Of a DNA stretch of 64,000 bases, positions 13,037-60,019 are shown in pieces (position 1 is the stretch's first letter; every line of letters starts with the position of its first letter). The translations under genes were made by a program, and so were the position numbers. Below the pieces are notes generated by a model that was given only the letters and a program-made list of their open reading frames with translations, was not told the DNA's origin and did not search any database. This DNA is from Candidatus Saccharimonadales bacterium (GTDB taxonomy: Bacteria; Patescibacteriota; Saccharimonadia; Saccharimonadales; SZUA-47). The stretch spans positions 461,437 to 525,436 of the forward strand of contig JBGSRU010000002.1 of NCBI GenBank assembly GCA_041737385.1, written 5' to 3'.

Positions 13037-13713
13037 AGCCTGTACTCCGAGCTTGCACGGTCACTACTCACCTTTCCATCTTTAATCGTTACTACTCGTC
13101 GTTTGAGCTTATCGACTATTTCTTTGTTGTGAGTCGTGAGCAGTACTGTTGTGCCGTATCTATTGATTTTTTCTAGTACGCGAATGACATCCCATGCATG
13201 TTTTGGATCAAGGTTTCCTGTTGGCTCGTCAGCAATAAGAATTTTAGGTTGACGTACAATAGCACGCGCAATCGCCACACGTTGTCTCTCGCCACCGGAT
13301 AGTTCAGATGGGTAATTATCATCTTTTCCTTTGAGGCCGACGATATCGAGGACTTTTGGCACAGTGTGTCGAATCTCTTTGTTGCTCATTCCCACAATCT
13401 CGAGTGCAAATGCGACATTCTCAAAAACCGTTCGGTTGCTAAGCAGTTTAAAATCTTGGAACACAACGCCAATCTTACGTCTCAGGAATGGAATGTCTTT
13501 GTCTTTTAATCGTTCGTAGTCAATACCGCCAACAATAATCTTACCGCTCGTTGGCTTTTCTTCCCTTGTGAGAAGTTTTAACAGCGTTGATTTGCCAGCG
13601 CCACTTGCTCCAACGATAACAACAAACTCCTTAGCCTCAACGTGTAAATTAATCCGCTCGATAGCGGGCCCTTTTCTATTATATGTTTTAGTTACTCTGT
13701 CTAATAAAATCAT
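13033..13713 (-). CDS. ftsE: cell division ATP-binding protein FtsE
   Basis: Walker A GASGAGKST, signature LSGGERQR, Walker B ILIADEPTGNLD. 226 aa, directly upstream of ftsX. Confidence 0.9.
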   Translation of the reverse strand: MILLDRVTKTYNRKGPAIERINLHVEAKEFVVIVGASGAGKSTLLKLLTREEKPTSGKIIVGGIDYERLKDKDIPFLRRKIGVVFQDFKLLSNRTVFENVAFALEIVGMSNKEIRHTVPKVLDIVGLKGKDDNYPSELSGGERQRVAIARAIVRQPKILIADEPTGNLDPKHAWDVIRVLEKINRYGTTVLLTTHNKEIVDKLKRRVVTIKDGKVSSDRASSEYRL

Positions 13714-20155: not shown

Positions 20156-22768
20156 TTATTTACGGCCTTTTTTGCGATTTTTGCGTTCTGCTTTTCGCTT
20201 TTTCTTGATAGTGTTTTGCTTTTTGCCGACAGTTGCTAATGCCGTTGCAGATTTTGTTACTTTAAAATCATCTTCATCAAACTCGTCTTGAGTATCAATA
20301 ATACGGTCAGCGTTATCAACGGAGCTTCGCGCTGCACGGGTAAGCTCTGTTTCGATTGGCTGATCTAGTTCTTTTGCGGTCATCGGGCGCGCATGGAATA
20401 GCGCTCTCACAATGTCATGCCGCAATACATTCTGCATATCTTCAAACATTATTTTTGATTGGCGGCGATATTCAACAAGCGGATCACGTTGGCCAACAGA
20501 TATCCAGTGGATACCTTGTCTCAAATGATCCATACTTTCAAGGTGTTGCATCCATAAGTTATCCATCACTTGCAAGTAAACATCCCGTTCGACTTTTTCC
20601 ATGATTTCTTTCGTAAAATCACTCGTCTGAACTTCATATCGCTTCAATACTTCTTTTTTAAGCTCTGCTTCAAACTTCTCAGAATCTAAGTTAAACAATG
20701 TATCGAGTACCGCGTCATCAAGACTAAAAACGTCTTTTAATTGTGTTTCAAATGCATCACTGTATGAATCGGGTGATGCGACCATAGCGGAAATTTGTTC
20801 AGTGATAAATTCTTTAACCTTCCCAGTTATATTGGTTTGTCTAAGCACTTCTTTACGGAGTGAATAGATAGCGACACGGTGGCGGTTCATAACATCATCA
20901 TATTGAACAACATTTTTACGCGTATCAAAGTTAAACCCTTCAACTCGTTTCTGTGCTGCTTCTAGGCTTCTGCTAATAACGCGGTTTTGTATTGGGGTTT
21001 CATCATCAATTTTGAGCCGGTTCATGACACTCGCAATACGGTCGCCACCAAACACACGCATCAAATCGTCTTCAGTACTGACATAAAACTGTGTCTCACC
21101 AGGATCACCTTGACGCCCTGAACGACCACGCAACTGGTTATCTGTTCGACGCGATTCATGGCGCTCAGAACCTATAACGTGCAGTCCACCCAGTTCTTTT
21201 ACGCCATCTCCAAGTACGATATCAGTACCACGACCTGCAATGTTGGTTGCGAGAGTAACTGCTCCTTTTTTACCCGCTTCAGCAACAATATGTGCTTCTC
21301 GCTCGTTGTTTTTCGCATTCAATACTTCGTGTTTGACTCCAGCTTTTTTCAAACGTTTGCTGAGTTCTTCGTTGTGTTGAATCGCTCCTGTTCCGATAAG
21401 TACTGGCTGGCCTTTTGCTTGCAGTTCTTTTGCGTCAGCAATGATTGCGTCGTACTTGCCGTTCTTCGTCTTGTAAATTTTGTCTGAATCGTCTTTTCGA
21501 ACGAGTGGCTTATTGGAAGGTATTTCAACAACCTCTAACTTATAAATCTGATGAAACTCTTCTTCTTCAGTTTTAGCGGTACCGGTCATACCAGATAGTT
21601 TTGTATACAAGCGGAAATAGTTCTGGAACGAGATAGTTGCAAGCGTCATAGATTCTTCTTGCACTTCAACGTGTTCTTTCGCCTCAATCGCTTGGTGAAG
21701 GCCTTCGTTGTAACGACGACCCTTAAGCAGTCGTCCAGTAAACTCATCAACAATGACGATTTCTCCGTCATTTGTCACTACATAATCTTTATCTCGTTTG
21801 AACAGCGCTTCTGCACGTAAGCCTTGGTCGAGGTGATAGATAGTCCTAATGTTCTGCGTGTCATATAGGTTGCTGATGCCGAGAGCTTTTTCAACAAAGT
21901 TAATACCTTCATCCGTAAGTGTCACTGCTTTACGCTTCTCGTCGACTTCAAAATGCTTGTCTTTCTTAAGCTGACGAGACAACTTCGAAAACTGCTCGTA
22001 AGAAGCACCACTTGTTGCGGATGGAGCAGAAATAATGAGCGGCGTTCTCGCTTCATCAATAAGAATTGAGTCAACTTCATCAACGATAGCAAAGTTAAGC
22101 TCTCGCTGACGCAGCTGTTCGACTTCTCGAACCATATTGTCGCGTAAGTAATCAAACCCAAACTCATTGTTCGTTCCATAAGTGATGTCTGCGGCATATG
22201 CTTCTTGGCGTGTACACGGTTTTAGGTGTCTGAAGCGAGGATCCTCGTGTTTCTCGTTATTATAGTCAGTATCAAAAATAAAGCTATGATCAGGGACAAT
22301 TACCGCGACACTGAGTCCAAGAGCGGCATATATTTGCGCCATCCATCCAGCATCACGCTGTGCAAGATATTCGTTAACGGTTACTACATGGACACCATTA
22401 CCTTCAAGCGCATTAAGATACACCGGTAGTGTTGCCACCAATGTTTTACCTTCACCAGTCTTCATCTCTGCAACCATGCCTTCATGGAGCACCATACCAC
22501 CAACTAGCTGAACGTCGTAGTGACGTTGCTGAATTTGGCGCCATGCCATTTCACGAACCGTTGCAAATGCTTCAGGAAGGATTGTATCAAGACTGTTGCC
22601 TTTTTCTGCGAGCATCATCCGCAGGTCATCTGTCTTTTTGCGGAGTGCGTTATCAGAGAGTTTCTTGAACTCGTCTTCAAGCGCGTTAACAGCTTTTACT
22701 CGCTTTTGAAGTCGCTTTAATGTTTTTGCCTCAGGATCACCGAGAAGTTTTTTTGCCAGTTTTTTCAT
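20156..22768 (-). CDS. secA: preprotein translocase ATPase SecA
   Basis: Motor motifs MKTGEGKTLVATLP and DEVDSILIDEARTPLIIS. Start placed at ATG 22768 (MKKLAKKLLGDPEAKTLKRL), which matches canonical SecA N-termini better than track start 22816. Lys/Arg-rich C-terminus. Confidence 0.95.
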   Translation of the reverse strand: MKKLAKKLLGDPEAKTLKRLQKRVKAVNALEDEFKKLSDNALRKKTDDLRMMLAEKGNSLDTILPEAFATVREMAWRQIQQRHYDVQLVGGMVLHEGMVAEMKTGEGKTLVATLPVYLNALEGNGVHVVTVNEYLAQRDAGWMAQIYAALGLSVAVIVPDHSFIFDTDYNNEKHEDPRFRHLKPCTRQEAYAADITYGTNNEFGFDYLRDNMVREVEQLRQRELNFAIVDEVDSILIDEARTPLIISAPSATSGASYEQFSKLSRQLKKDKHFEVDEKRKAVTLTDEGINFVEKALGISNLYDTQNIRTIYHLDQGLRAEALFKRDKDYVVTNDGEIVIVDEFTGRLLKGRRYNEGLHQAIEAKEHVEVQEESMTLATISFQNYFRLYTKLSGMTGTAKTEEEEFHQIYKLEVVEIPSNKPLVRKDDSDKIYKTKNGKYDAIIADAKELQAKGQPVLIGTGAIQHNEELSKRLKKAGVKHEVLNAKNNEREAHIVAEAGKKGAVTLATNIAGRGTDIVLGDGVKELGGLHVIGSERHESRRTDNQLRGRSGRQGDPGETQFYVSTEDDLMRVFGGDRIASVMNRLKIDDETPIQNRVISRSLEAAQKRVEGFNFDTRKNVVQYDDVMNRHRVAIYSLRKEVLRQTNITGKVKEFITEQISAMVASPDSYSDAFETQLKDVFSLDDAVLDTLFNLDSEKFEAELKKEVLKRYEVQTSDFTKEIMEKVERDVYLQVMDNLWMQHLESMDHLRQGIHWISVGQRDPLVEYRRQSKIMFEDMQNVLRHDIVRALFHARPMTAKELDQPIETELTRAARSSVDNADRIIDTQDEFDEDDFKVTKSATALATVGKKQNTIKKKRKAERKNRKKGRK

Positions 22769-22915
22769 GCTTATAATTACCCTTAAGTTAATTAGTGCGT
22801 TAGCGAGTTGGTTCATGACTACCTTACGCAGCCCTCACCCACACCGCTGTACTCGTTTGCGTACAGTATACCGTAAATACCCTACTTTACGCGAGAAGAA
22901 ATAAGCTGGCTCTCT

Positions 22916-23305
22916 CTAAGTTGTACGTTTGCGCCGATTTAGTTTACCGAACAGTCGCCGAGCCCGCGAATTTTGGTGTTTATCACTAGACCTAGAGTGT
23001 TTTTCTTTGTGCTTTTTGAGCTGATTTTGTAGTTTGGCTTCAACAATATCAACAGCGGCGAACATGTTTAGCGTTGATTCAACTGCGGTGAGACGCGCGC
23101 CTGGAATATGCAGTATGACTTCACACGTACATTTCTTGCCACTCTTTGTACTAGTTGATTCGCTGAGCTTCACATCCGCTCGAACATCTGGTCTCTGCGA
23201 CCGCTTTAAATGTCGATCTAATTTACCAACCTTTTTCTGAATATACTTCTCTAACTCCTTTGTAACATCCGCTTTGATACCAGTAATTGCTATATTTTCG
23301 ATCAT
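22916..23305 (-). CDS. hpf: ribosome hibernation promoting factor (RaiA/HPF family)
   Basis: MIENIAITGIKADVTKELEKYIQKKVGKLDRHL is typical of the family. Basic C-terminal tail. ATGA overlap with the serS stop. Confidence 0.85.
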   Translation of the reverse strand: MIENIAITGIKADVTKELEKYIQKKVGKLDRHLKRSQRPDVRADVKLSESTSTKSGKKCTCEVILHIPGARLTAVESTLNMFAAVDIVEAKLQNQLKKHKEKHSRSSDKHQNSRARRLFGKLNRRKRTT

Positions 23306-24629: not shown

Positions 24630-25418
24630 TTAGCGACGTTTTTGGAGGGCTTCTAGCGTTAATTCTGTGCGAGATCGAGCATACTCACAGTGTTCACATG
24701 GGCCACCCATGGCAGCGGTACCTACTGCTGGCATCTTGTCGTTGTCAAGTGTTTTCTTCATTTGAATCAATACGCCATCCACCCAATCGCTTGATCCAGT
24801 GTGCGGGAATACATGGGTTTCAAACTCAACGACGTTATTGAAGCCTGCACGGTCTTTTGTGCCAGTTGCATAGACAAAGTAGCCGGTATCACTCACTTCA
24901 AACCCATTCTGCTTCAGTAACCACTGATATATTTCCATCTGCCGTCGATACATGTCTTGCCACCCGCCAACTGGACCAAGCTTTTTAACTGGCGTATCTT
25001 TAGCGGTTGCCTTGTAGTCTACTACTATGATTTTGCCATCAGCATCAACCCAAATATCATCAACGGCACCAAAGACGTGTAGGTTAGTTGGTTCATGTAT
25101 ATGGATTATGCCGACAAAGTTTTCACGCCACTGATCCATCTTCTCGTGTTTGAATGGAGTCGCTTTTATCTGATTATCTTTCATGAGCGGGTGCGGTTCG
25201 CCTTTTGCTCGGTAGACATCGAATTCTTTTTTGAACAACTCATCAATTGTCTTATTGATGTTGAACGGCGGACTGCTTGGACGTTTTATTTTCAACCGTG
25301 CATCAAGCCAAAAGCAGCGAGGACATTGCATGAAAAGCTCTATTTTACTCCTTGAAACTTTAAATGGTTCAGTTTGTCCAACTTGATACGGTTTGTTTCG
25401 CTCTTTCCAATAGTTCAT
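24630..25418 (-). CDS. PD-(D/E)XK nuclease, Cas4/RecB-like with Cys pairs
   Basis: Core motifs GAVDDIWV, IVVDYKA (D..[D/E]xK) and QMEIYQWLL, with CPRC near the N-terminus and CEHC near the C-terminus. Start placed at ATG 25418 (ATGA overlap with the upstream stop). Confidence 0.75.
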   Translation of the reverse strand: MNYWKERNKPYQVGQTEPFKVSRSKIELFMQCPRCFWLDARLKIKRPSSPPFNINKTIDELFKKEFDVYRAKGEPHPLMKDNQIKATPFKHEKMDQWRENFVGIIHIHEPTNLHVFGAVDDIWVDADGKIIVVDYKATAKDTPVKKLGPVGGWQDMYRRQMEIYQWLLKQNGFEVSDTGYFVYATGTKDRAGFNNVVEFETHVFPHTGSSDWVDGVLIQMKKTLDNDKMPAVGTAAMGGPCEHCEYARSRTELTLEALQKRR

Positions 25419-26257
25419 CTTTTGGTCCTGTCTAGCGTTATCCAACCCGACTCACTCGCGTGTAACAAAAAAGCTGCCAATAACCCAAAACTCATAGTCA
25501 CTAATAACCCCAGGATAAACCCAACTAACTGCACCTCGCCATCTCTAATGAGAAAAAAAATGCAATATGCTAGTCCTGGCAGAACTGTCATAAACAAATA
25601 AACGAACACTTTTACACTAATTAGTCTCGAATGAATTTTAATCGCTTCATCTATTGAATTCCTTACTAACAACTTTTTTTGGTAGCCTATCTGCTCATCA
25701 ACAGAAGTAAATTTGTAAATCCTTGCGACTTTATCTAAGAATAGACAAATGCCATCTTGCATTTCCTTGGGATTAATTTTTTCATTTGTCGTTAATATTA
25801 TCTGAGTTGAAATCATTTCCATATCAGTTTTCTTTAACTTATCACGAAAAATCAACATGACGTCAGGAGTAACGAATGATAACGCTTCGTTCTCTAGTCC
25901 ACTAGGAGCGTACAGCTGGAAAAATTTATCAAAATCGCCCTCAAGACTAACCCTTTGCGATTGGTCATATGTATCATATGCCGTTGCATACAAATATCTA
26001 TCTCTGTAATGAGAGTCTAGGAAAATGTTAGGCAAGGCTTTGTCGCCAGAAATAATTGTGTCGAAAACGTGCCTTCGTTTTTTTGAAAAATGAAAATGAC
26101 GATAGTAGGTTGAGCTTATTTTAAAAGTGAATCCGTCACTTTCATACGTTGCTTCAAGTATTTTCTCTGTTTTAGCATATTTTAGAGCCTTAATGATAAT
26201 TATGATCAAAACTAAAAATAATAAGAGAGATACCATATTAAACAGGTCTTCGTTCAT
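25415..26257 (-). CDS. hypothetical membrane protein (N-terminal TM, soluble middle, two C-terminal TMs)
   Basis: 280-aa ORF, translationally coupled to the downstream nuclease and 4 nt from rsmE. Faintly DUF3137-like, but that recognition is uncertain. Confidence 0.5.
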   Translation of the reverse strand: MNEDLFNMVSLLLFLVLIIIIIKALKYAKTEKILEATYESDGFTFKISSTYYRHFHFSKKRRHVFDTIISGDKALPNIFLDSHYRDRYLYATAYDTYDQSQRVSLEGDFDKFFQLYAPSGLENEALSFVTPDVMLIFRDKLKKTDMEMISTQIILTTNEKINPKEMQDGICLFLDKVARIYKFTSVDEQIGYQKKLLVRNSIDEAIKIHSRLISVKVFVYLFMTVLPGLAYCIFFLIRDGEVQLVGFILGLLVTMSFGLLAAFLLHASESGWITLDRTKR

Positions 26258-28053: not shown

Positions 28054-28338
28054 TTACAATTTAATTGTTTCTCTTGCTTCTACAACTGATGAAGATCCTA
28101 CTACTTTCGGTATATAGCCTGATGAAACTTTGCTTACCAAACCGTCATGAGAAACAATATATGCGGAACTGCCTATAGAAAGCTTACCCAAAATATTTGC
28201 ACCTCCTCTAGACTCTTGAACAAACAAAAATCCGTCATCGAAAGACTTTGAAAGTACCAATACAGTACTTGAGCTTTCACTAGTAAAGTCGTGACCTTCA
28301 AACGATGAAATACTTGTGATTGCCTCTGTTTCAGTCAT
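28054..28338 (-). CDS. small hypothetical protein
   Basis: 94-aa ORF whose start overlaps the upstream methyltransferase stop by 8 nt. Ser-rich, no family recognised. Confidence 0.4.
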   Translation of the reverse strand: MTETEAITSISSFEGHDFTSESSSTVLVLSKSFDDGFLFVQESRGGANILGKLSIGSSAYIVSHDGLVSKVSSGYIPKVVGSSSVVEARETIKL

Positions 28339-29617
28339 GTTTTTCTTCCGATTTTGGCTCTAAAACTATCAGTGATTCTATGTGTGGAGTTCGGGGAAAG
28401 AAGTTGTAGCCTTGTGCATAGGTAATTTTGTACTGCTCTAGCAGATATTTAACATCTCTCGCTTGGGTGCTTGGATTACACGATAGATATAAAATTTTCG
28501 GAGGTAGTACGTCAAGAATTGCGTCTATCATTCTACTGTGCAATCCAGCTCTTGGTGGATCAACTATTAGAGCTTTATCTGGTGAAATATACTCTGTGGC
28601 ACTTTCCGAGGAGGCATGTACTACTTTATGGCTACCCTCTGCCGACTGAACGTTCTTTTTCATCATTTTGATATTTACATTGTCTGATTCAACCAATATT
28701 TCGGAGCCGACTGCAATGCCGATTGTGCCCACGCCAGAATACATATCGACGGATTCGAGGTCACCAATTTGATCCTTAATCACTGTTAATGCTTGTTCAA
28801 AAATAGGTAAATTTACTTGGAAGAATGATCGCACGTCGTAGTTAATGTTTTGCCCGAGTATCGTGTCAGAAAGCCGTATATCACCAACAGAGACCAGTTT
28901 TTTCGTTGCAACACTTGCAGGACTTTTAGGATCAGACAGGAAAAAATCTATGCCATTTATACAGTCTGGCATCTCAAATTTGGAAACATCTATTTCTTCT
29001 TTCATGAATAGCGTTGCCACTGTTTCACCTGACTGTGACGCGCGTACAAGCAATGTTTTAAGTTTACCGCCCCAAACACCAATTCGCTCCAGCTCAGCGC
29101 TTACTGCTCGGGCTGAGTCGTTAATCGCTTCTTTGGCAAGAATACTACCCTCTATAATCTGCTTGCCGCTAGAGCCTCTTACGTAATGAGCCATGTGTAG
29201 ACCGCCGTCGTCACCCCAAAAACCAAACTCCATTTTGTTTCTATAGTGATACTGTTCTTTACTTGAGACGAACGGTTGCCAAGAAGTTTCTGACATCCCT
29301 TCTCTCGCAAATGAGTCATCGAGTATTGACTGTTTCGCACTATTTTCAGCATCATAGGTAACTATCTGCCATGGGCTGGTAGATAAGTAGCTTAATGGTT
29401 CCTTTGGTTCTATTCGATCTTTAGATGGTGTATGAACTTTAGTGACGATACCTTCAAGATATGAACTCTTCTTTTTTGTGATGCGCACATCAACTACTTC
29501 TCCCGGCAATCCGCCCCAAACAAAAAGCTTCTTGCCTTCTTCAGTCTGCGCGATACACTGTCCGCCGTGGACGAACTTACCTAATGTTAGGCTCTCTTTA
29601 ATAATCTCTTTTTTCAT
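28331..29617 (-). CDS. 23S rRNA (uracil-5)-methyltransferase, RlmD/RumA/TrmA family
   Basis: N-terminal TRAM-like OB (GGQCIAQTEEGKKLFVWGGLPGEVVDVRITKKK) and MTase motifs DMYSGVGTIG, DPPRAGL, YLSCNPSTQARD. Confidence 0.85.
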   Translation of the reverse strand: MKKEIIKESLTLGKFVHGGQCIAQTEEGKKLFVWGGLPGEVVDVRITKKKSSYLEGIVTKVHTPSKDRIEPKEPLSYLSTSPWQIVTYDAENSAKQSILDDSFAREGMSETSWQPFVSSKEQYHYRNKMEFGFWGDDGGLHMAHYVRGSSGKQIIEGSILAKEAINDSARAVSAELERIGVWGGKLKTLLVRASQSGETVATLFMKEEIDVSKFEMPDCINGIDFFLSDPKSPASVATKKLVSVGDIRLSDTILGQNINYDVRSFFQVNLPIFEQALTVIKDQIGDLESVDMYSGVGTIGIAVGSEILVESDNVNIKMMKKNVQSAEGSHKVVHASSESATEYISPDKALIVDPPRAGLHSRMIDAILDVLPPKILYLSCNPSTQARDVKYLLEQYKITYAQGYNFFPRTPHIESLIVLEPKSEEKHD

Positions 29618-29636: not shown

Positions 29637-29667
29637 AAAAATCTCCTCGCGCGGATGAGGAGATTTT
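29637..29667 (-). terminator. strong intrinsic (bidirectional) terminator after the heliorhodopsin gene
   Basis: Perfect 11-12 bp inverted repeat aaaaatctcctc / gaggagatttt around an 8-nt loop gcgcggat. U-rich tract on the minus-strand transcript (GAGGAGAUUUUUGUU). Confidence 0.8.
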
Positions 29668-29688: not shown

Positions 29689-30666
29689 TTACGGCCGCAA
29701 TGCGCCAGCAAACACTTGCCAAGCAAGCGCTGATTTAGCAACTAGAGAAAGAACCATATAGGCCTTTTCACCGAATATATAGTCTGTCCAGCGACCTTTG
29801 CCCTTGTACTGTAGATACATATTGACGGCAAAACTGCTGAAGAATACGAACATGCTGCCAAAAATATAGTAAACAAATGTTGGAATCTCACCTGCACCAT
29901 ATTGATTTGAGCCCCATAAATATAAACCGATAACTATCCATGGGAGTAATCCAACGATTGTACCAACATTGAAGCTAATCCAACTTGTTTTAGCTGTCGT
30001 TTGGTTGTGTATCTCCATAATCAACCCACATAGATTCATGACGAGCGTTGCTCCGAAGATCAGAATCAGTGTTGATAGATCAGAGACACCTACAAGATAT
30101 GCAATGCCGACCATCATAGTGCTCGCACTGATACCGTATTCATACCAACGAGCTTTGTTGATACCTTTTTCTAGATTAGCTTCGTATTTTTTACGATAGA
30201 TAGTTGCAATGTACAGGTGTGCGATTGCTGACATGAAGAAAAATGCAGCGACGAGGTATGAAAGGTTAACGTCAAACAGGTGTCTCGTTGCTGGAACCAA
30301 AACAGGTTCTGCTCCCCCGCTGCTGATCGTATCAACCGTTAGATAGTTGGTAGTAACTGGAAACAGACTGTCGCTTCTACTTAGAAGCACTACTGCAAGA
30401 CCTTGTGCTGCGTGCAGCGTAGCCATTGCCCAGTTCCATGCGTTTAATTGTTTAAACTTATCGGTTACTTTCTTCACAGTAGTGACTTTCGTCGCTTTTG
30501 TAGTTGTCTTCGCTAATTGAGTTTTCTTTGCTGTTTTAGCAGTCGACTTTACTGCGGTACTTGCTGATTTAGTTGTTTTTTTAGCAGCTGGTTTATTAGC
30601 TTTTGCTTTAGAAGGAACTTTTTTAGTTGTTGATTTTTTCTTGCGGGGTGTAGTTGTTGTAGCCAT
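29689..30666 (-). CDS. heliorhodopsin with Lys/Thr/Ala-rich N-terminal extension
   Basis: Seven hydrophobic segments. RWYEYGISASTMM and YLQYKGKGRWTDYIFGEKAYMVLSLVAKSALAWQVFAGALRP match, from memory, the signature TM3 (counter-ion Glu) and TM7 (Schiff-base Lys in SLVAKSALAW) of heliorhodopsin 48C12. The first ~63 aa hold 18 Lys + 1 Arg and no acidic residue. Confidence 0.85.
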   Translation of the reverse strand: MATTTTPRKKKSTTKKVPSKAKANKPAAKKTTKSASTAVKSTAKTAKKTQLAKTTTKATKVTTVKKVTDKFKQLNAWNWAMATLHAAQGLAVVLLSRSDSLFPVTTNYLTVDTISSGGAEPVLVPATRHLFDVNLSYLVAAFFFMSAIAHLYIATIYRKKYEANLEKGINKARWYEYGISASTMMVGIAYLVGVSDLSTLILIFGATLVMNLCGLIMEIHNQTTAKTSWISFNVGTIVGLLPWIVIGLYLWGSNQYGAGEIPTFVYYIFGSMFVFFSSFAVNMYLQYKGKGRWTDYIFGEKAYMVLSLVAKSALAWQVFAGALRP

Positions 30667-30727
30667 GGAAGAAATAATAGCATAGTTTGAGTCACACTGT
30701 AAGTGAACTTAACTCGGAAGCCCAGAG

Positions 30728-31990
30728 TTATATATTAATTTCAGCATCAAGTATTTCTTGTAAAAGCGAAATTATTTCATTTGGTCCAGCAGCGAGAGTA
30801 GTTGCAATAAGTTTTCTTGGTAATATATTATTGCCTTCAGGATCATCTGTATTTGCATCAACTGAGCTGTTCCAGTTTCCGCCAACTGATGCAATCGCTG
30901 CTGATATGGCTCTGGTAGCTGATACCGCAGACGATGTAGTATTGATATTATTGTCATCGTCATAAACACTTAAAACAGTCCACTGTGCGGTTAATCCCGG
31001 ATAGCCATCGCCAGCGAATACTGTACCGTCTTTAAGCTGATTATACTCACCATAATTGTCTAGCACAGGATATGTTGCTCCCGCTCCGGTGTTCCATGAT
31101 GTCGGTTCACCTGATAATTTCTTTAGAGATGAACAACACCCACCCGAACTAGCCGAACCACGAGCATCGGTAAATAAGACGAACTGAATGTCTGTTGCGC
31201 CGCTCAAATCTAATGCATCTCCAGGTCCATATACTGAGCCAAGTCGCATGCGTGCTAGTGATCCTGGCAAATGATCTTGAAAATCAGACGTAGATGAGCT
31301 GCCAGGTCCGTATCGTCTATCCCAGTTTGTGGCTGTTGTTTTATCACGAGTAAATGACACGGTTACATCGTATTTATGTTCTTGATTAAAGTTATTGGTT
31401 CCATATTGCAGGACAGCCACTTCAGCAGTTGGTGCGTTATCAATAATGTAGTTTATTGATGCGTCTACTGTGCTTTTACTCTGTAACCATTCAGATTCAC
31501 TCATAGAACCGGAATTATCCACAATAAATATAAACCGAACACTCGTATTACTGCCCGATGTATACGTTATCTTACCCTGAATTTCACGACTGTACAGAAG
31601 TTTTGCTTTGTTCTTTGTGTATACTCTACCAACACCCGCTATGTCCTGCTGGGTATTTGCTGTATTTGAAAAGCCTTTATGAATCACTTCGTATGTGATT
31701 TCATGTAGATCAGTCGTATAGAGCGTTGTTTCAGCGGTACCAAGGTAATTTAAGTCAATCTCATACTGCTCCTTGGCAAAGTCCATCGCTGATACGCTTG
31801 CTAATTGTGCTTCACGAATGAGTTCTTGGTTGAGTGTAGTCCGATATGCCTGAGTAGCAGCTACAATTGTAAGAGCACTAAACATAAAAACTATCGGTAT
31901 AAAGGTGATAATTGTTATCATCACGAATCCTTTTTCGTTCTTTTTGCTTTGTGTGCACTTTTCAGATTGGTTTGTGTATAAAAATTTCAT
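30728..31990 (-). CDS. prepilin-signal-like protein with vWA domain
   Basis: Leader MKFLYTNQSEKCTQSKKNEKG followed by FVMITIITFIPIVF (Thr, not Glu, at +5). MIDAS motif FIVDNSGSMS and a downstream LFTDA. 1-nt stop/start overlap (TAATG) with the upstream pilin gene. Confidence 0.7.
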   Translation of the reverse strand: MKFLYTNQSEKCTQSKKNEKGFVMITIITFIPIVFMFSALTIVAATQAYRTTLNQELIREAQLASVSAMDFAKEQYEIDLNYLGTAETTLYTTDLHEITYEVIHKGFSNTANTQQDIAGVGRVYTKNKAKLLYSREIQGKITYTSGSNTSVRFIFIVDNSGSMSESEWLQSKSTVDASINYIIDNAPTAEVAVLQYGTNNFNQEHKYDVTVSFTRDKTTATNWDRRYGPGSSSTSDFQDHLPGSLARMRLGSVYGPGDALDLSGATDIQFVLFTDARGSASSGGCCSSLKKLSGEPTSWNTGAGATYPVLDNYGEYNQLKDGTVFAGDGYPGLTAQWTVLSVYDDDNNINTTSSAVSATRAISAAIASVGGNWNSSVDANTDDPEGNNILPRKLIATTLAAGPNEIISLLQEILDAEINI

Positions 31991-32796
31991 TAGTTGATTT
32001 TCCTTATTGTGTGATTAACCACTGTCTGAACGTCCTTACCAAACACTTTGTCGCCTAAGGTCAGCTCGATTTCTATCTTATCTGCTGCTGATGGAAACGG
32101 CGTCTCAACGTTGCCTTCTGCAAAATATTTGACAGTAAAATCTAATACATTTTCACTTAATGGAGAATCTTTGCCGGTGCAATTGCCGGTACCAACAAAC
32201 GATGCTGGACAGGTTGTTCCTTTCGCTAGTCCACGACACGTTGCTGTTTCCGGAGCGCATGGATTTCCTGTTGTAAGGTCGATGCTACATAGTGGATATG
32301 CCGGTACAATAGTGCGCTTGTATAAAGTCGAGTATCTATTTGCTGTGTTAGGTCTCACAAAATAAAAGACATTATTTATGGCAAGCGGATTAGCCGTAAT
32401 GCTCGATGAGCTACAGTTATTGACACGTTGCCTAATTATATTTCGACTATCATCTCTTCTAGCCGTATCAATTGATATCTCGTTAATGATTAGTGTTTGC
32501 GGGTCTGTATTGTACGTCAATCCACCCGATGGTGCATTTGGATCTGATAGCCTTCCTTCAAGACTTTCTCCATAAGCGATAGTAAATAATAACTCATCCT
32601 GCAAATTTATAAGTATCGTTTGTCCACTTGCTCGAAGAGTTGTACGTGCTGATTCTGCAAGTGTACTGGCATATTGAGTGAACAGCGCACTAACAAGAAT
32701 AATCACTACTATCGATACGAGTGGCAAAGCGATCATTATTTCAACTAGCGAGTAACCACTTTGATAATTTTCATGCTTAGAATTTTTGTGTGTCAT
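31990..32796 (-). CDS. type IV pilin-like / pseudopilin protein
   Basis: Class III signal MTHKNSKHENYQSG followed by YSLVEIMIALPLVSIVVIIL (Glu at +5). 268 aa. Confidence 0.75.
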   Translation of the reverse strand: MTHKNSKHENYQSGYSLVEIMIALPLVSIVVIILVSALFTQYASTLAESARTTLRASGQTILINLQDELLFTIAYGESLEGRLSDPNAPSGGLTYNTDPQTLIINEISIDTARRDDSRNIIRQRVNNCSSSSITANPLAINNVFYFVRPNTANRYSTLYKRTIVPAYPLCSIDLTTGNPCAPETATCRGLAKGTTCPASFVGTGNCTGKDSPLSENVLDFTVKYFAEGNVETPFPSAADKIEIELTLGDKVFGKDVQTVVNHTIRKIN

Positions 32797-32797
32797 A

Positions 32798-34321
32798 TTA
32801 ATCAGTCAATCCATATTTTCTTACATACGACACATACTCTACTTTGTATCGCTGATCAAAAGCATCATATTCAATTACCGAAGTAATTTTGAGTAGGGTT
32901 GGATTATCAACGTCTCCATCAGAATCAGAATCAACATAATTACCTGGTGTTGTTGATGATGTTGTTGATGAGTTTATGATAAGTCTTGGAGCCGGATACC
33001 TTGTTGCAATTCTCCTACCATTACCCGAAACATATGAAATGCCGATCGCAATATTATTTCCTGGAACCCAGCCTGGACGGTTTACTATTTCTTGAATAAT
33101 GCTTGTTATATTAACCTCAGTATTTGTATTATTTTGTCCAGCAGACCAGTTTGGGGGGCTCCATGTGACTGACGCGACTGTACCAACCTTTCCATCGGTC
33201 GCAATTGAATCAATTGCTCTATCTACACCATACGCCCCTGACCACACGGGAGCAGTGTCTGCATTTACCGCTTTAATAAGCATCGTAACGCCACCGGATT
33301 GAGACGATTGAGAAGTAAAGTTCAAATAAGCATTGGTAATCGTTGCACCTTGAGTTGCTGTAACCCCATCAAACGTGATTCCCGTAGATTGGCGTCCACG
33401 GTTTCCATCGGTTGTAAATTCTATTGGAGAGTCACTGAAATAAAGTTGTCCTGGAGAAACAGCTGCATCAGTGCCATGTTGCTCAACGGTATCACCGCTC
33501 TGACCTGCTGAAAAAGCTTCAAGTTCAGATATTACCGCAAAGTTGTTGTTTTCTGCATTGACAAAATATAAGCGCCAGTGCCTGAACGCAGTAGTGTTTG
33601 AGCTAACATCAATCACTTGAGGGTACTCACCGCTTACACAGGGAAAAGGACCATTGTCGGCTAAGCCACTCCGAATTGTCGTCCATCCGTTGTTGTTTGA
33701 GGGTGAGTTATTTTTTGCCTCAATACGAAAGTTACTTGCTCCATACCCACAGGCATACCAGTTTATGCGAATTGAAGCAACCGTCTGTGCCGATCCAAGA
33801 TCAATTGACGGTGAAGCAAGGTTATCCGGATTATTAGCGTATCGGCTGTAGGTATAATTTGTATATATGTTATCTCTGATCTGAGATAGATTAAACCAAT
33901 CGCCTGTTGCATCGTGTTGATTAATACTGTTGATTTCTGGACCTGTTACGTAGGCTGTATCACTACTTACAGATTGAGAAAATGTTTGTGTTGTTGTGGT
34001 TGGAGGAGATATGACACTTGCAGGTTCAGCGTAGACTTTTGCGGTGGCATTTTTGAGTAATTCTGACGCTGCTTCACCAGAAAAATCCTCAACCTCATAA
34101 GTATTTGCTACATCGCCAATCGGAACATTGTCGTATTCTAAATTAATATAGTCTTGTACTTTTTTAAAAGCGAGAGACCCTGCAGTTGCACGTAAATTTG
34201 ACTTGGCGTTTAGTGTTGAAGCATTAATAACAATGGAGCTAATAACTGTAAGCAGTAAGGACAAGAGAAGTAACGATACAAGCAACTCTACAATAGTAAA
34301 ACCGTTATTTTTTTTGTGCAT
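32798..34321 (-). CDS. large modular type IV pilin-like protein with discoidin (F5/8 type C)-like module
   Basis: Class III signal MHKKNNG followed by FTIVELLVSLLLLSLLL. Central segment IDLGSAQTVASIRINWY...NFRIEAKNN...GWTTI...WRLYFVNAENNNFAVISELEAF resembles discoidin/galactose-binding-like domains. A further beta-rich C-terminal module follows. Confidence 0.75.
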   Translation of the reverse strand: MHKKNNGFTIVELLVSLLLLSLLLTVISSIVINASTLNAKSNLRATAGSLAFKKVQDYINLEYDNVPIGDVANTYEVEDFSGEAASELLKNATAKVYAEPASVISPPTTTTQTFSQSVSSDTAYVTGPEINSINQHDATGDWFNLSQIRDNIYTNYTYSRYANNPDNLASPSIDLGSAQTVASIRINWYACGYGASNFRIEAKNNSPSNNNGWTTIRSGLADNGPFPCVSGEYPQVIDVSSNTTAFRHWRLYFVNAENNNFAVISELEAFSAGQSGDTVEQHGTDAAVSPGQLYFSDSPIEFTTDGNRGRQSTGITFDGVTATQGATITNAYLNFTSQSSQSGGVTMLIKAVNADTAPVWSGAYGVDRAIDSIATDGKVGTVASVTWSPPNWSAGQNNTNTEVNITSIIQEIVNRPGWVPGNNIAIGISYVSGNGRRIATRYPAPRLIINSSTTSSTTPGNYVDSDSDGDVDNPTLLKITSVIEYDAFDQRYKVEYVSYVRKYGLTD

Positions 34322-35358: not shown

Positions 35359-37338
35359 CTATTTCCAAACTTGAAAATCTTTAGTTAGCTTCTTAGCTAT
35401 GTCGTTGTCAGCGAAAAAACTCACTCCGTAAAATTCAGTATCATCAAAAGACTTACTCTTTAATGATTCTACTATCTCGTTGTCATTAGTAGTATCCTGC
35501 ATCTCTTTAATAAAAACGTGATGTGTAAGGTTATTTTCAGTTATTTTTTTATACAACTTATGTAGTGACTTTTCGTCTCCTTTCATTATTATGATAGGAA
35601 ATTGAGAATTACGAGGTATAGCATCACCCCGAGAGTCAATGAAATTATCCGCACTAGTTAGCTGGTGTTCGTCAGTTTTGCTGCCTATGATTGTTTGCAT
35701 ATGAGCGACTGCATTAGCAACTCGCCAAGGCTCTAAATCTTTTCGTACTACATTGATGATTCGCTTTGAAAAGTCTTGCTCTCTAATAGTTTGAGCTGCT
35801 TTTATAGCCTCTGCTGAAAAAAGTTCAGGATAAATAGACTTCGTAACTTCATCTACGTCAGATCTTAGTTGTGGAAAAACAACTCCTTCTCTAGCAGTGA
35901 CACCTTCTAACATCCAGAAAAGACGCTCACTGTTCCCATAACCACAAGCAGGAGGCATCCCGTATTCAAGCATCTCAACAAAATCTATATCCATCATCAT
36001 CGCTTCTTCGTCGCCCGCTTCGCGCATACTTTGTTGGTCCACAAAACGACTAAGTTGGTCAACCGGATCATTGAGCTCACTGTATGCTTTGCAGACCTCA
36101 CTACCGCCAAGCATCAAGTTGAATTGATCAGTTAAGCGATTATCATCTTGCTGTAACTTTGCTAGAGGCTGTAGAAAATCCGGAACATCGATGAGGAAAG
36201 TTGGGCCAGTAATTTTCACCCTTTCAAGTTTCCATAATTTATCTATAACACGCGACCGGTTCTCTATTTTCTCTACAATACCGCCGGCTTCTTTAAGTTT
36301 TTTGACCGCTTCATCTAGAGTGCAAGTATATACATCTATTCCATACTTTTCTTTAAGTAGCTCGACAAAACTCACTCTTGGCCAGTCTTCGTTATCTGTG
36401 CCTAAGTCAATCTCCATGCCGTTGGCTAGCTTAAATTGACGAGTTCCCCATGTCATGTCAGCTATATGGCGTACCATCGATTGAGTAAGTTTCATGCCGT
36501 CTTCCCAGTCTGCATAAGCCCAATACCACTCCATAGCAATATGCTCCGGCAGATGCTCGTCCGAATAATTTTCGTTTCTAAATCGTGGGCCTAGATCATA
36601 GACTTTTTCAAAGCCTGCTCCAATTAGTCGCTTTAATGGCAGCTCATGACTAATGCGTAAGTAGAAATCTTGATCAAGTGCGTCCATATGCGTCACAAAC
36701 GGGTTAGCATCAGCGCCGCCAGTTGTGTGCTCCAGAACTGGTATATTCACTTCAAGAAAGCCTTCGTTGTTCAAAAAATCACGTGTTGCCTGCCAAAACT
36801 TGCTGCGTCGAACGAATCTATCACGAACATCAATATTGACATTCATATCAACATAGCGTCGGCGAAGGCGCTGCTCTTTATCAGTAAACCCTTCTTGAGC
36901 TGATGGCATTGGACGCAAGGACTTGGTGAGTAATCTAAGTTTCATGCAACTAACAGATATCTCACCTGTCTGAGTCTTGATAACCTGACCATTGCACTGC
37001 ACAAAATCCCCTGTATCTAACAGTGCAATTTCTTCTGGCATGAGTAGCTCACTATTACTACGATCAGCTTCTAGTGATCCTTCACCTTTTTTAATAAAAA
37101 GCTGTACTTGTCCGCTCATATCGCGCATAACAATAAACGCTAACTTGCCGAACTTACGTATCGACATAATACGACCGACAATAGTGACCTCTTGGCCTTC
37201 TAAGTGTTCAAACCCTTCAACTACATCAGCAATAGAATGCGTGCGTTGTGATTTCGCTGGGTATGGGTTTATACCAAGCTCTTTTAGCTCAGCTAGTTTG
37301 CGTAATCGCTCGTCTCGAAAATCTTTTAACGTTGCCAT
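35359..37338 (-). CDS. lysS: lysyl-tRNA synthetase (class II) fused to a C-terminal DUF2000-like domain
   Basis: MATLKDFRDERLRKLAELKELGINPYP, OB-fold anticodon-binding domain and class II core (GPRFRNE, GGADANPF, GYGNSERL). The last ~135 aa (35362-35766) are extra: KRIINVVRKDLEPWRVANAVAHM...FPIIIMKGDEKSL...FYGVSFFADNDIAKKLTKDFQVWK. Confidence 0.9.
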   Translation of the reverse strand: MATLKDFRDERLRKLAELKELGINPYPAKSQRTHSIADVVEGFEHLEGQEVTIVGRIMSIRKFGKLAFIVMRDMSGQVQLFIKKGEGSLEADRSNSELLMPEEIALLDTGDFVQCNGQVIKTQTGEISVSCMKLRLLTKSLRPMPSAQEGFTDKEQRLRRRYVDMNVNIDVRDRFVRRSKFWQATRDFLNNEGFLEVNIPVLEHTTGGADANPFVTHMDALDQDFYLRISHELPLKRLIGAGFEKVYDLGPRFRNENYSDEHLPEHIAMEWYWAYADWEDGMKLTQSMVRHIADMTWGTRQFKLANGMEIDLGTDNEDWPRVSFVELLKEKYGIDVYTCTLDEAVKKLKEAGGIVEKIENRSRVIDKLWKLERVKITGPTFLIDVPDFLQPLAKLQQDDNRLTDQFNLMLGGSEVCKAYSELNDPVDQLSRFVDQQSMREAGDEEAMMMDIDFVEMLEYGMPPACGYGNSERLFWMLEGVTAREGVVFPQLRSDVDEVTKSIYPELFSAEAIKAAQTIREQDFSKRIINVVRKDLEPWRVANAVAHMQTIIGSKTDEHQLTSADNFIDSRGDAIPRNSQFPIIIMKGDEKSLHKLYKKITENNLTHHVFIKEMQDTTNDNEIVESLKSKSFDDTEFYGVSFFADNDIAKKLTKDFQVWK

Positions 37339-39336: not shown

Positions 39337-40122
39337 TCACCGTACAAACACGACATAAAATGCAATCGAGTTTTTGATTGCATGAAGCAGCATTGCACTG
39401 TAGAGCGATTGATGTTTTTGGGAGATATAAATCAGAAATCCTGAGAATATAAGCGTATCAATTGCCGCTATATAATTAAGATTGTCATATTCTAGGTGGG
39501 CTGCTCCAAACAAAACCGAAGTCAACACTGCAGCAGTGATAAACGAACCGTATTTTTTAAGCGCATTGAATAAGAACCCGCGGAACAGAATCTCTTCATA
39601 GATTGGCGGCACGACAGCGAGCATGAAAAATATAATCAGTTTGCCGTCAATTGTATCCGGTTTCGTGATACCAAGTTCTTGGACTTGATCAACATTCACT
39701 CCAGTAAAGATTCCTAAAGTCACTGTTACGACAACCAATACAAGGAAATAAAGCCCGTAAGTTAGCACTACTTCACCTACTTGAGACCACGTTGGACGCT
39801 TTGATAATAATAAAAACTTCTTAGGAGATTCTTTACTTAGTTGGAGAATTTTTATTACAAAAAAAGACACAAACGCTGCAACAAGAAGAATCAATAATAG
39901 CTGGGCAATACGATTATCACCGATGATTTCTGCGGTTTGTTCTCTCTCGTTCCCTAAAATAGTCAACGACAAGATAATTGTGAGCGCAGCTATAAACTGA
40001 CTACTATAAAAGACAAAAGCACTAGTAAATAAAGTAATTGCGAGAGCAATTGGGTTTGTCTTTGTCGGTTCAGCTGCGACGATATGTTGTTTAGTTGATA
40101 ATGAATCTTTGGACATCGACAA
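39337..40122 (-). CDS. CPBP family intramembrane glutamic endopeptidase (CAAX protease-like)
   Basis: Motifs IYEEILFRGFLF (EExxxR), FGAAHL and LHAIKNS in a multi-pass membrane protein. Confidence 0.8.
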   Translation of the reverse strand: MSMSKDSLSTKQHIVAAEPTKTNPIALAITLFTSAFVFYSSQFIAALTIILSLTILGNEREQTAEIIGDNRIAQLLLILLVAAFVSFFVIKILQLSKESPKKFLLLSKRPTWSQVGEVVLTYGLYFLVLVVVTVTLGIFTGVNVDQVQELGITKPDTIDGKLIIFFMLAVVPPIYEEILFRGFLFNALKKYGSFITAAVLTSVLFGAAHLEYDNLNYIAAIDTLIFSGFLIYISQKHQSLYSAMLLHAIKNSIAFYVVFVR

Positions 40123-41233
40123 TAGTTATAAGTACGAAAAGCAGCATCAACAGCGCAAAGCCTGTGCCGTGAATTCGTTCTTCTGTTTCTTTGGTTAGTG
40201 GTCGTTTAAGTGCTCTGAAAAGTAGTGTCACAAACAATCTACCACCATCTAATGCTGGTATCGGCAATATGTTCATGATAGCTAATGATAGAGAGATAAT
40301 ACCAGTGAGAAACAATATAGATATAAATCCTTGTGAGCTCAATTCGCTCAAAATATAGCCGATGCCAACGACACCAGTAACTTGTTCTTTTGCAGTTGAG
40401 GCGTCACCTTTAGACAAATCCTTAAAAATCGAGCCGAAGCTCTTGAATGTTTCTTGCACTACTTGACCAGAAAAAACAGTCGCTACAATAGGCGCTGACC
40501 ATGTTGATCGTGTTTCTGAATAATCCGACGGCACAACTCCAAGGTAGCCTTTTGGATCGTCTGAGTTCTTGCTTGCTTCAACTTCTTCTGTTCCGAGGAG
40601 TTTTGTTTCTGCAATCTTAGTTTCACCGTTTCTTTTTTCATAAGAAATTGTTACTTCTTTTCCTGCTAATGATTTTGTCGCTACAGAGAGTTGGCTTGAT
40701 TCTGTGAAAGAAAATAAATCGCAATCAGCAACACAATCAGATTTTTGTTCGATAGAACGAATAATATCGCCAGCTTCCACCCCTGCTTGTTCTGCAGGCG
40801 AGCCTTCACCAACAAAGCCTGCAATAATATACTGTTTCGAGATTTTGGTATCGCTTGCGACGGTAAATTGATTGTCCAGTACTTTTGGTAGTCCAACTGC
40901 AGCAACAATCGTTAAAATAAACAGCGCCGCAAATATATTCATGATGACGCCGGCCACCATGACTTTTATTTTGTCAGATAGTTTTGCAGCACCAAACGAG
41001 CCTTTTTCAGTCGCACTGTCACTCTCACCTTTAAGCTTCACAAACCCACCAAGCGGTAGCCAGTTTAAGGTATATTCCGTGCCATTTTTCTTAGCAATTG
41101 TTTTAGCTTTTGGTGGAAATCCTATACCAAACTCTTCAACTTCAATGCCAGCTCGACGAGCAGCCCAAAAATGCCCTAGCTCGTGAAAAATCACCAACCC
41201 GATTAGCATCAAAATTCCAAGAAGTATAAGCAT
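40091..41233 (-). CDS. rseP: RIP metalloprotease RseP (M50 site-2 protease)
   Basis: HELGHF zinc motif in TM1, central PDZ (GVEAGDIIRSIE) and C-terminal NILPIPALDGG. Confidence 0.87.
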   Translation of the reverse strand: MLILLGILMLIGLVIFHELGHFWAARRAGIEVEEFGIGFPPKAKTIAKKNGTEYTLNWLPLGGFVKLKGESDSATEKGSFGAAKLSDKIKVMVAGVIMNIFAALFILTIVAAVGLPKVLDNQFTVASDTKISKQYIIAGFVGEGSPAEQAGVEAGDIIRSIEQKSDCVADCDLFSFTESSQLSVATKSLAGKEVTISYEKRNGETKIAETKLLGTEEVEASKNSDDPKGYLGVVPSDYSETRSTWSAPIVATVFSGQVVQETFKSFGSIFKDLSKGDASTAKEQVTGVVGIGYILSELSSQGFISILFLTGIISLSLAIMNILPIPALDGGRLFVTLLFRALKRPLTKETEERIHGTGFALLMLLFVLITIVDVQRFIIN

Positions 41234-50231: not shown

Positions 50232-50876
50232 ATGGATTTACAACAGTCTGAACCAACACAACCAAGTAATTTGCCGTCAAGTAGTCCGAGGTTTGATTCA
50301 TTTCGGCGACGAGCACGAGGTGTATCTGGCACTATTCTATTACTTGTCGCTGCACCGCTACTCGCACTCTTTCTTACTGCCCATGTGTTTCAGCCTTACG
50401 AAGTGGATGGTCAGAGTATGGAGACGACACTTCAAAACACTGATAGGCTCATAGTTTTTAAACTACCTAAAACGATTTCAAATATATTCAGTGGTGACTA
50501 CGCACCCGCTAGACACGACATCATTGTCTTTGATCGACCTAAACAGCTTAGCGCACCGGAGAGTACACAACATCTCATTAAAAGAGTTATAGCCCTACCT
50601 GGTGAGCGGGTCGTTGTTAAAGACGGTCGAGTCACGGTATACAACGAAGCCAACCCTTCCGGTTTTGATCCAGATAAAGGACAAGAGTACTCTAATGATA
50701 TCGTCTCGACGCGTGGTAATGTTGATATTACCGTTGGCAAAAACGAGTTTTTCGTACTTGGCGACAATAGAGACAACTCAAGTGACTCACGAATATTCGG
50801 TACTATACAAAATAGCATTATTGTTGGACAAGCCACCCTACGATTCATACCTATCAACAGTATGCAGCGTTTATAG
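50232..50876 (+). CDS. lepB: signal peptidase I
   Basis: TM anchor, Ser box VDGQSMETTL, Lys box KRVIALPGE and GDNRDNSSDSR. Confidence 0.88.
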   Translation: MDLQQSEPTQPSNLPSSSPRFDSFRRRARGVSGTILLLVAAPLLALFLTAHVFQPYEVDGQSMETTLQNTDRLIVFKLPKTISNIFSGDYAPARHDIIVFDRPKQLSAPESTQHLIKRVIALPGERVVVKDGRVTVYNEANPSGFDPDKGQEYSNDIVSTRGNVDITVGKNEFFVLGDNRDNSSDSRIFGTIQNSIIVGQATLRFIPINSMQRL

Positions 50877-59922: not shown

Positions 59923-59952
59923 ACTTACACTCTACTCCCATCTACTCCGCTT

Positions 59953-60019
59953 TGCAAAGGTCAGACCTCCGCGACTAAAAATAGGACAAATAACACCTTG
60001 CGGAGGTCTGACCTTTGCA
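59953..60019. repeat. perfect 20-bp inverted repeat (REP doublet) with 27-nt spacer
   Basis: tgcaaaggtcagacctccgc ... gcggaggtctgacctttgca. Each arm contains the near-palindromic core aggtc-n-gacct. Confidence 0.9.

Follow-up and report, generated by a model that had tools for sequence, protein, structure and literature searches.

A predicted disordered, polycationic N-terminal tail on a heliorhodopsin of a Candidatus Saccharimonadales bacterium and on its relatives

Heliorhodopsins, known since 2018 and abundant among monoderm microbes, are still without a general function. We analyzed a 64,000-nt stretch of a Candidatus Saccharimonadales genome (contig JBGSRU010000002.1, positions 461,437 to 525,436; this whole stretch is called the window below), which contains a heliorhodopsin gene whose product carries a lysine-rich N-terminal tail. 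The gene is complete, lies on the minus strand (29689 to 30666), starts with ATG and encodes 325 amino acids (aa) followed by a stop codon, as judged from the open reading frame (ORF) list, the Pfam match and the relatives in the PDB. A database protein identical to its product (P0001) is encoded on a 531-kb NCBI contig. The Pfam profile Heliorhodopsin (PF18761) was matched over its full length (1 to 242 of 242) by residues 74 to 323, the E-value being 1.5e-88 and the score 296.7 bits (cut-off 26.7). These residues, encoded at 29698 to 30447 on the minus strand, represent the seven-transmembrane (7TM) core; the first transmembrane helix (TM1) is predicted to start from residue 63. The nearest solved structures are TaHeR (6is6, E = 3e-65) and 48C12 (6su3, E = 9e-47).

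We aligned the protein residue by residue to 6su3. The motif RWYEY pairs with RWVEY of 48C12, so that E176 equals the counter-ion E107, and SLVAK is identical in both proteins, so that S307 equals S237 and K311 equals the retinal Schiff-base lysine K241; the SxxxK motif is present. H85 corresponds to H23 of 48C12, and H150 pairs with the His of the 48C12 FHF segment, in the region of H80. On the minus strand, the codons of these residues lie at 29734 to 29736 (Lys311, AAA), 30139 to 30141 (Glu176, GAA), 30412 to 30414 (His85), and 30217 to 30219 (His150). None of the four varies in an alignment of 52 related sequences. Every feature of a heliorhodopsin that can be tested in a sequence was found, namely the profile, the Schiff-base Lys, the counter-ion Glu, the His pair, and a predicted 7TM fold with a long beta-hairpin in extracellular loop 1 (ECL1). 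It is well supported by these features that 29689 to 30666 encodes a bona fide heliorhodopsin, which looks like a functional 7TM retinal photoreceptor. The initial annotation, made from the sequence alone, had proposed this identity and named the same two motifs, which align with 48C12 exactly as it claimed; it had also made its reading depend on the Schiff-base Lys and the counter-ion, both of which are present.

A Pfam scan of all 55 large ORFs found no blh, crt, photolyase or glutamine-synthetase gene in the window, in line with the earlier remark that no retinal-synthesis genes are visible there. The retinal must come from outside the cell. The lack of such genes agrees with the report that Saccharibacteria get retinal from other organisms (PMC9296517).

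Residues 1 to 63 (30478 to 30666, minus strand) form the polycationic tail, recognized by codon counts, AlphaFold2 and homologous tails in relatives. They comprise 18 Lys codons (14 AAA and 4 AAG), one Arg codon and no GAN codon, and hence no Asp or Glu, which confirms the composition given in the initial annotation. The net charge is about +19, Lys makes up 29% and Thr plus Ser 37% of the residues, and the motifs TPRK and KPAAKK are located at residues 6 to 9 and 25 to 30, respectively. No segment of the window is more basic than the tail, which has a net charge of +15 per 40 aa. Only the annotated frame (frame 0) is open over the tail DNA, which is 48% A and 24% C and contains no stop codons. 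The Lys:Asn ratio is 18:1, with one Gln and no His, Asp or Glu; Asn and the latter four residues are nearly excluded, although each is a single substitution away from the abundant codons of the tail.

We built an AlphaFold2 model from a 52-sequence alignment. Residues 1 to 62 have a predicted local distance difference test (pLDDT) score below 50 and no secondary structure, as expected for a disordered segment. The core is modeled mostly at pLDDT 84 to 96, with helices at 63-95, 135-154, 171-192, 197-223, 229-256, 263-288, and 296-323, and with an ECL1 beta-hairpin at 101-134 (strands 101-112 and 122-134). In the model, the tail is therefore a predicted intrinsically disordered region running straight into TM1. 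The N-terminus of heliorhodopsins is established to be cytoplasmic (inverted topology). Because the family is N-in and about 19 positive charges are implausible to move across a membrane, the tail most probably faces the cytoplasm, as the initial annotation had proposed on the same family topology; the charged N-terminal tail also fits the positive-inside rule.

To learn how far the tail is shared, we compared the 120 closest database homologues, which are 58-100% identical to the protein and several of which are named Candidatus Saccharibacteria. A basic tail of the same type was found in 112 of them, with the extension open and alike in composition, so that the earlier suggestion to look for such tails on related heliorhodopsins was answered in the positive. 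The 112 tails are 72±9.5 aa long (range 47-109), with a net charge of +20.8±2.6 and a Lys plus Arg fraction of 0.319±0.023. Their pooled composition is 30% K, 23% T, 14% S, 14% A, 6% V and 3% P; D and E together account for about 2%, Gly for 0.4% and aromatics for about 0.1%, and there is no Cys. The tails start with MATT[TK] in 91 of 112 cases, and conservation is much stronger in this first stretch, MATT[TK]K, than in the remaining tail, where KKP[AVT][AVT]K is present in 40 of 112. Relatives from genomes with 56-58% GC have basic tails built with Arg and Ala instead. These comparisons suggest that selection acts on the charge and disorder of the tail and not on its sequence.

The database gene calls around this start are inconsistent. 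Four proteins (P0095, P0098, P0105, and P0108) are cut to 243-245 aa, with the tail lost, and in six others (P0002, P0003, P0029, P0048, P0071, and P0075) the calls are extended upstream of the conserved MATT start. These discrepancies look like annotation noise around a conserved true start.

An in-frame GTG at 30477 (Val64) had been named by the initial annotation as a possible start of a tail-less protein, with the ATG preferred. A consensus scan of the minus strand identified a promoter-like site at 30674 to 30703, consisting of a −35 element CTTACA (30703-30698), an 18-nt spacer and an extended −10 element TGcTATTAT (TG at 30682-30681, hexamer at 30679-30674). The −10 box ends at 30674, 7 nt before the A of the tail ATG, which is the geometry expected of a leaderless mRNA starting at or beside A30666. 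No Shine-Dalgarno sequence precedes the tail ATG, though many other genes of the window have one. We then examined 12 independent tail-bearing loci (the window, L001-L005, L009, L015, L079, L081, L084, and L085), some with a core identity of only about 40%. In 12 of 12, a −10-like box stands 6-7 nt (10 nt in L004) ahead of the tail ATG, and in nine of these 12 the box is complete in its extended form, TGnTAnnnT. The ATG behind the conserved box opens a MATT, MAQA or MVST context. Since the promoter box fronts the tail ATG in all tail-bearing loci examined, a start at GTG-64 is unlikely. We rejected it because its position is not conserved and neither a −10 box nor a good Shine-Dalgarno sequence lies ahead of it; any Met within 14 residues of the core is kept in only 20 of 112 tails. 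The preference for the ATG is thus supported by promoter geometry as well as by homologous extensions, and the orthologues do carry the extension whose lack had been listed as evidence against the tail. Three independent lines, all of them computational (conservation, promoter geometry and protein-level selection), together make it very likely that the tail is translated from the ATG.

Downstream of the stop codon, a GC-rich 12-bp hairpin followed by a T-run (29638 to 29667, minus strand) is a probable intrinsic terminator. As this structure separates the heliorhodopsin gene from the next gene, the gene is probably monocistronic. A leaderless, monocistronic mRNA whose 5'-terminal AUG encodes the Met of MATTTT would place the tail on every molecule.

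Leaderless geometry is not restricted to tail-bearing genes. In a scan with one genome per species we collected 80 heliorhodopsin loci, mostly from Saccharibacteria and other Patescibacteria (81 with the window, about 70 of them with a usable core). A −10 box lies 5-8 nt before an in-frame ATG in 46 of the 81, and tail-less orthologues also show this geometry. Within the window, about 12-15 of 55 genes lack a Shine-Dalgarno sequence and instead show, 6-8 nt upstream of the ATG, a TATAAT-like box that is often accompanied by TGn; among them are those at 10503-11660, 13033-13713, 25415-26257, 32798-34321, 40091-41233, and 50232-50876. Other genes carry clear GGAG/AAGG sites, and the genome seems to mix leaderless and Shine-Dalgarno-led expression. 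Judging by these sites, leaderless expression seems to be nothing unusual in this genome.

To estimate the breadth of the trait, an exhaustive HMMER search with the core only was performed, which gave 3,011 heliorhodopsin-like representatives of 50%-identity clusters, and the N-termini were classed in the 141 best representatives aligning from the core start. In 55 of the 141 (about 39%), the core is preceded by a basic tail that is at least 30 aa long and has a net charge of at least +8. The remaining ones have short N-termini (77), acidic extensions (3), or longer extensions that are neither clearly basic nor acidic (6). We also noticed that the acidic extensions (P0137, P0166, and P0250) are strongly so, that of P0137 numbering 22 D/E among its 69 aa (net charge −13); they represent the opposite charge solution at the same position.

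Among the 81 loci (the window included), long tails occur in nine, and the others have 6-21 residues before the core. A neighbor-joining tree of the cores placed nearly all long tails in one large clade nested within the Saccharibacteria heliorhodopsins. Along this tree, the N-termini lengthen stepwise, from 6-10 aa (1-3 K/R) to 13-21 aa (4-8 K/R), then to 26-64 aa and finally to 65-109 aa (20-28 K/R). The tail may thus have grown from a short basic N-terminus by stepwise low-complexity sequence growth. At least one expansion, that of L015, looks independent.

The gene lies in a conserved block, in the order M50 protease, Rce1, aminoacyl-tRNA synthetase, GreA, aminoacyl-tRNA synthetase, heliorhodopsin, TRAM/U5 RNA methyltransferase, RsmE, PD-(D/E)XK, SerRS, HPF, and SecA. 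With variable insertions, this block is common to about 30 loci, short- and long-tailed alike, and its members include the locus of P0145 (42% core identity, 67-aa tail, 777-kb contig) and that of the high-GC P0170. Within this one housekeeping locus, the orthologues have N-termini of either 11-21 aa or 53-78 aa. The shared block indicates that they are vertically inherited orthologues differing mainly in tail length, and it is also from synteny that a Saccharibacteria affiliation of the distant tail-bearing representatives is suggested. The downstream neighbor, a TRAM-domain RNA (uracil-5) methyltransferase gene (28331 to 29617, minus strand; identified by Pfam), is conserved in synteny in about 25 loci. 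We tried to derive a function from the gene neighborhood and obtained no specific clue, as the housekeeping block is shared by short- and long-tail orthologues.

Directly upstream (30728-34321, minus strand), and also in L002-L005 and L079, are genes for two type IV pilin-like proteins and a VWA-like protein of 420 aa. The pilin-like pair has an N_methyl motif, and one of the two also has a galactose-binding-like domain. This trio is found only in the closest clade and is absent from the long-tail loci L009 and L081 and from the short-tail loci; it looks like an insertion into the conserved block.

We next surveyed charge in 1,425 ORFs of the window and 80 Patescibacteria-rich loci, with a threshold of net charge at least +15 in a 50-aa stretch. 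Only 16 of the 1,425 ORFs passed, and eight of these 16 are heliorhodopsin tails. The other high-charge ORFs include SecA C-termini, putative ribosomal proteins and a LytR-family protein. With 16 of 1,425 ORFs comparable and no other such tail in the window, we rejected the idea that the tail reflects a proteome-wide habit of Saccharibacteria. By these comparisons of sequences, the tail belongs to a whole clade, is found again and again among heliorhodopsins of the Saccharibacteria type, and is not peculiar to this gene.

The initial annotation had described the tail as histone-H1-like. In composition this stands, as the tail is predicted to be disordered, is Lys-rich and acid-free, and has motifs of the KKPAAKK and TPxK kinds; in homology it does not, as no H1, Hc1 or Hc2 profile was matched. 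The window tail matched no Pfam family at E ≤ 10, and the best Pfam match for the tail of a homologue was HC2, which was non-significant (E = 0.27, 11.8 bits against a cut-off of 40). A PDB sequence search with the tail returned nothing at E ≤ 10, and a word-based protein search gave 15 candidates, none of which scored. Because low complexity defeats homology methods, other protein families with the same tail cannot be listed in this way. H1-type tails are rich in Ala and Pro; the window tail contains less of both and more Thr and Ser. In sequence terms, the resemblance to H1 is a compositional analogy and not family membership. The tail does share a polycationic, disordered character and S/TPxK-like motifs (TPRK at 6-9) with the C-terminal domain of eukaryotic linker histone H1, but the window protein has no winged-helix globular domain and no Pfam Linker_histone match.

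An analogy is also offered by the Lys-rich "H1-like" tails of bacterial proteins, such as mycobacterial HupB and Ku (PAKKA), Streptomyces TopA, Deinococcus HU, Pseudomonas AlgP, and Chlamydia Hc1/Hc2. HupB, TopA and the N-terminal extension of Deinococcus HU are examples of Lys-rich tails that bind DNA. Like the heliorhodopsin tails, these bacterial tails are disordered, about 30% Lys, nearly acid-free and of low complexity, and KKPAAKK-type motifs are common to both. They differ in that no sequence homology connects them, that the heliorhodopsin tail is much richer in Thr and Ser, and that it is attached to a membrane photoreceptor instead of a soluble DNA-binding fold. H1-like bacterial tails bind DNA or polyphosphate electrostatically (PMC3553676, PMC9239181, PMC6821194).

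We also compared the protein with known heliorhodopsins. 48C12 (6su3) and TaHeR (6is6) have the same 7TM core, Schiff-base Lys, counter-ion Glu, both His, SxxxK and a long ECL1 beta-hairpin. However, their aligned cores begin at residues 5 and 14, respectively, after only about 4-13 residues, as opposed to the 63-residue, +19 tail of the window protein. N-terminal additions as such are already known. Bulzu et al. (2021) described MORN-HeR, Znf-HeR and at least 10 types of N-terminal extension ("ntv1-ntv10"), which, like the present tail, are cytoplasmic N-terminal additions and were interpreted as interaction or signaling modules (PMC8612252). The MORN and Zn-ribbon additions are folded domains found in Firmicutes and Thermoplasmatales, unlike the domain-less, disordered tail of Saccharibacteria. 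A Lys-rich tail is not discussed in the text of that paper, as distinct from its supplementary variant list (ntv2-10), which was outside this check; nor is it discussed in the surveys of rhodopsins of the Candidate Phyla Radiation (PMC9166423, PMC9296517), in the flanking-gene classification (PMC11109279), or in two recent papers on heliorhodopsin structure and ancestral reconstruction.

What might such a tail do? A disordered, nearly acid-free polycation of conserved charge density would be expected to act by bulk electrostatics on a polyanion. We tentatively favor the reading, which we hold at somewhat less than an even chance, that the tail tethers the protein electrostatically to nucleic acid or some other polyanion, with nucleoid DNA or RNA preferred. 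It would work as a sequence-independent tether that holds a cytoplasmic polyanion, most likely nucleoid DNA or RNA, at the cytoplasmic face of the photoreceptor dimer. As the tail is continuous with TM1, light-driven movements of the cytoplasmic half might be coupled to the bound partner; alternatively, bound nucleic acid, and repair or regulatory enzymes with it, may simply be kept beside the light sensor. Four considerations lead us to prefer nucleic acid. In ultra-small cells, the nucleoid is necessarily near the membrane. At about 70 aa and +20, the tail matches the bacterial H1-like tails and exceeds typical lipid-binding polybasic patches, and KKPAAKK-type and TPxK-type motifs recur in the tails. 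In addition, a 4-6.5-fold enrichment in DNA-binding and chromosome proteins has been reported for the Lys-rich low-complexity regions of prokaryotes (PMC6821194), and the PAKKA-type basic tails of mycobacterial Ku modulate DNA binding (PMC3553676). Heliorhodopsins have been reported to bind cytoplasmic partners, including photolyase, glutamine synthetase and an ABC transporter (PMC11109279). By analogy, a tail that holds nucleic acid at the photoreceptor would fit this pattern, which includes a DNA photolyase.

Several points weigh against this interpretation. The computed results do not separate DNA, RNA, polyphosphate, anionic lipid and acidic protein as targets, and the Pfam, PDB and word-based searches found no homology of the tail to nucleic-acid-binding families. 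The Thr/Ser-rich composition differs from that of classical Ala/Pro-rich H1-type tails. Some orthologues at this locus get by with N-termini of 11-21 aa, so basic heliorhodopsin function does not depend on the tail. A membrane-anchored polybasic chain would by default be attracted to the anionic inner leaflet, and the leaderless start would follow from promoter consensus only. The proposal of the initial annotation that the tail binds DNA, RNA, ribosomes or lipid accordingly keeps the standing of an inference.

The attraction of the inner leaflet leads to the main alternative, namely that the tail lies on it and binds or clusters phosphatidylglycerol or cardiolipin, thereby controlling oligomerization, localization or the lipid environment, with no contact to nucleic acid. 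Polybasic juxtamembrane segments are well established to bind acidic lipids. Here the tail runs directly into TM1, which would give a very high local concentration of lipid headgroups, and the conserved property is charge density and not sequence. Typical lipid-binding polybasic patches have 6-20 aa, though, and a tail of 72 aa and +21 is far beyond them. It has virtually no aromatics (0.1% of pooled residues) and very few large hydrophobic residues for insertion into the bilayer, and AlphaFold2 predicts no amphipathic helix. Lipid-binding MORN repeats are a known N-terminal fusion of other heliorhodopsins (PMC8612252), whereas prokaryotic Lys-rich low-complexity regions are statistically tied to nucleic-acid binding (PMC6821194). 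On balance, we regard a purely lipid-directed role as possible but rather doubtful. We consider it unlikely that the disordered tail is instead a fly-casting docking arm for one specific acidic cytoplasmic enzyme or regulator. The published heliorhodopsin functions are all partner-binding (PMC11109279), a predicted disordered segment would suit this purpose, and MATT[TK]K and KKP[AVT][AVT]K (40 of 112) could be short linear motifs. However, we found no conserved candidate partner gene that is confined to tail-bearing loci, neither glutamine synthetase nor photolyase is encoded in the window, and beyond residues 5-6 the sequence changes freely, as a specific interface seldom does.

The tail might also have no partner. 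It stands immediately N-terminal to TM1, and the K/R count climbs from 1-3 to 4-8 and then to 20-28 along the tree, so a topogenic role can be conceived in which the extra charge enforces an N-in TM1 by the positive-inside rule or aids insertion in reduced genomes. By von Heijne's rules, charges more than about 20-25 residues from a transmembrane segment add little to topology, and the conserved length of about 72 aa would be left unexplained. Heliorhodopsins do obey the positive-inside rule (bioRxiv 10.1101/2025.11.27.691015), but most of them, same-locus orthologues included, need only 7-21 aa with 1-8 K/R for it, which makes this explanation very improbable. Finally, the tail may have no function at the protein level, being a low-complexity expansion made by slippage in an A-rich tract and perhaps kept as an unstructured A/C-rich 5' coding region that aids ribosome loading on a leaderless mRNA. 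The mRNA is apparently leaderless, and the tail RNA is essentially unstructured, with a minimum free energy of −18.6 kcal/mol per 189 nt versus −52 for the next 189 nt; the rapid sequence turnover, the length range of 47-109 aa and the lineages without a long tail also fit. Such an origin hardly accounts for a charge density of 0.319±0.023 held across cores only about 35-57% identical, or for the near exclusion of Asn, Gln, His, Glu and Asp, which are one step from A-rich codons. High-GC relatives keep basic tails by Arg and Ala codons, so A-richness is not what is conserved, and the tail-less orthologues are leaderless too. The mRNA-level explanation is insufficient, and we keep it as a minor and improbable rival.

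The idea of an electrostatic tether to nucleic acid can be carried further. Saccharibacteria are ultra-small cells with few transcription factors, and the heliorhodopsin could be a membrane-anchored, light-responsive nucleoid- or RNA-associated protein that tethers nucleic acid at the membrane and neutralizes it locally; when light sets TM1 and the cytoplasmic face in motion, the tethering would change. We think this extended reading unlikely as it stands. If true, it would provide a one-protein route from a photon to the state of the chromosome or transcript, or would hold DNA beside light-dependent repair, and it would suggest a function common to the many heliorhodopsins that bear a tail. 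Whatever the partner, the conservation of a predicted disordered polycationic tail, at a narrowly constrained charge density, gives a structural clue to heliorhodopsin function that has been overlooked, and it points to a polyanionic target at the cytoplasmic face. In heterologous expression as in annotation, trimming such proteins to the Pfam core or choosing an internal start would remove a probably functional module.

Other features of the window were also recorded. K/R-rich C-terminal tails (e.g., ...KKKRKAERKNRKKGRK) are present on SecA (20156-22816, minus strand) and on a hibernation-promoting-factor homologue (22916-23305, minus strand), and the K/R-rich SecA tail recurs in other Saccharibacteria loci (L007, 13979-16618; L049, 7525-10101). 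Three genes on the minus strand have no positional link to the heliorhodopsin; they encode an LPG_synthase_TM-family membrane protein (2777-3844), a 500-aa Fic-domain protein (5513-7015), and a stand-alone response-regulator receiver protein of 141 aa (7082-7507). The gene at 35359-37338 (minus strand) joins a class II aminoacyl-tRNA synthetase of the D/K/N type, which has an OB anticodon domain, to a DUF2000 domain at the C-terminus. A 2,124-aa ORF at 52568-58942 (minus strand), which has no Pfam match at E ≤ 0.001, adjoins parA/parB (50900-52512). The region at 59311-63948 has a mobile or phage-derived look. It contains an IS200-like Y1 transposase gene (59311-59922), a YafQ-type toxin gene (60221-60487) with a 100-aa upstream partner (60484-60786), and a 1,035-aa ORF with an endosialidase-chaperone (Peptidase_S74) domain (60841-63948). 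The GC content is 0.515 at 62-64 kb, versus about 0.42 elsewhere in the window.

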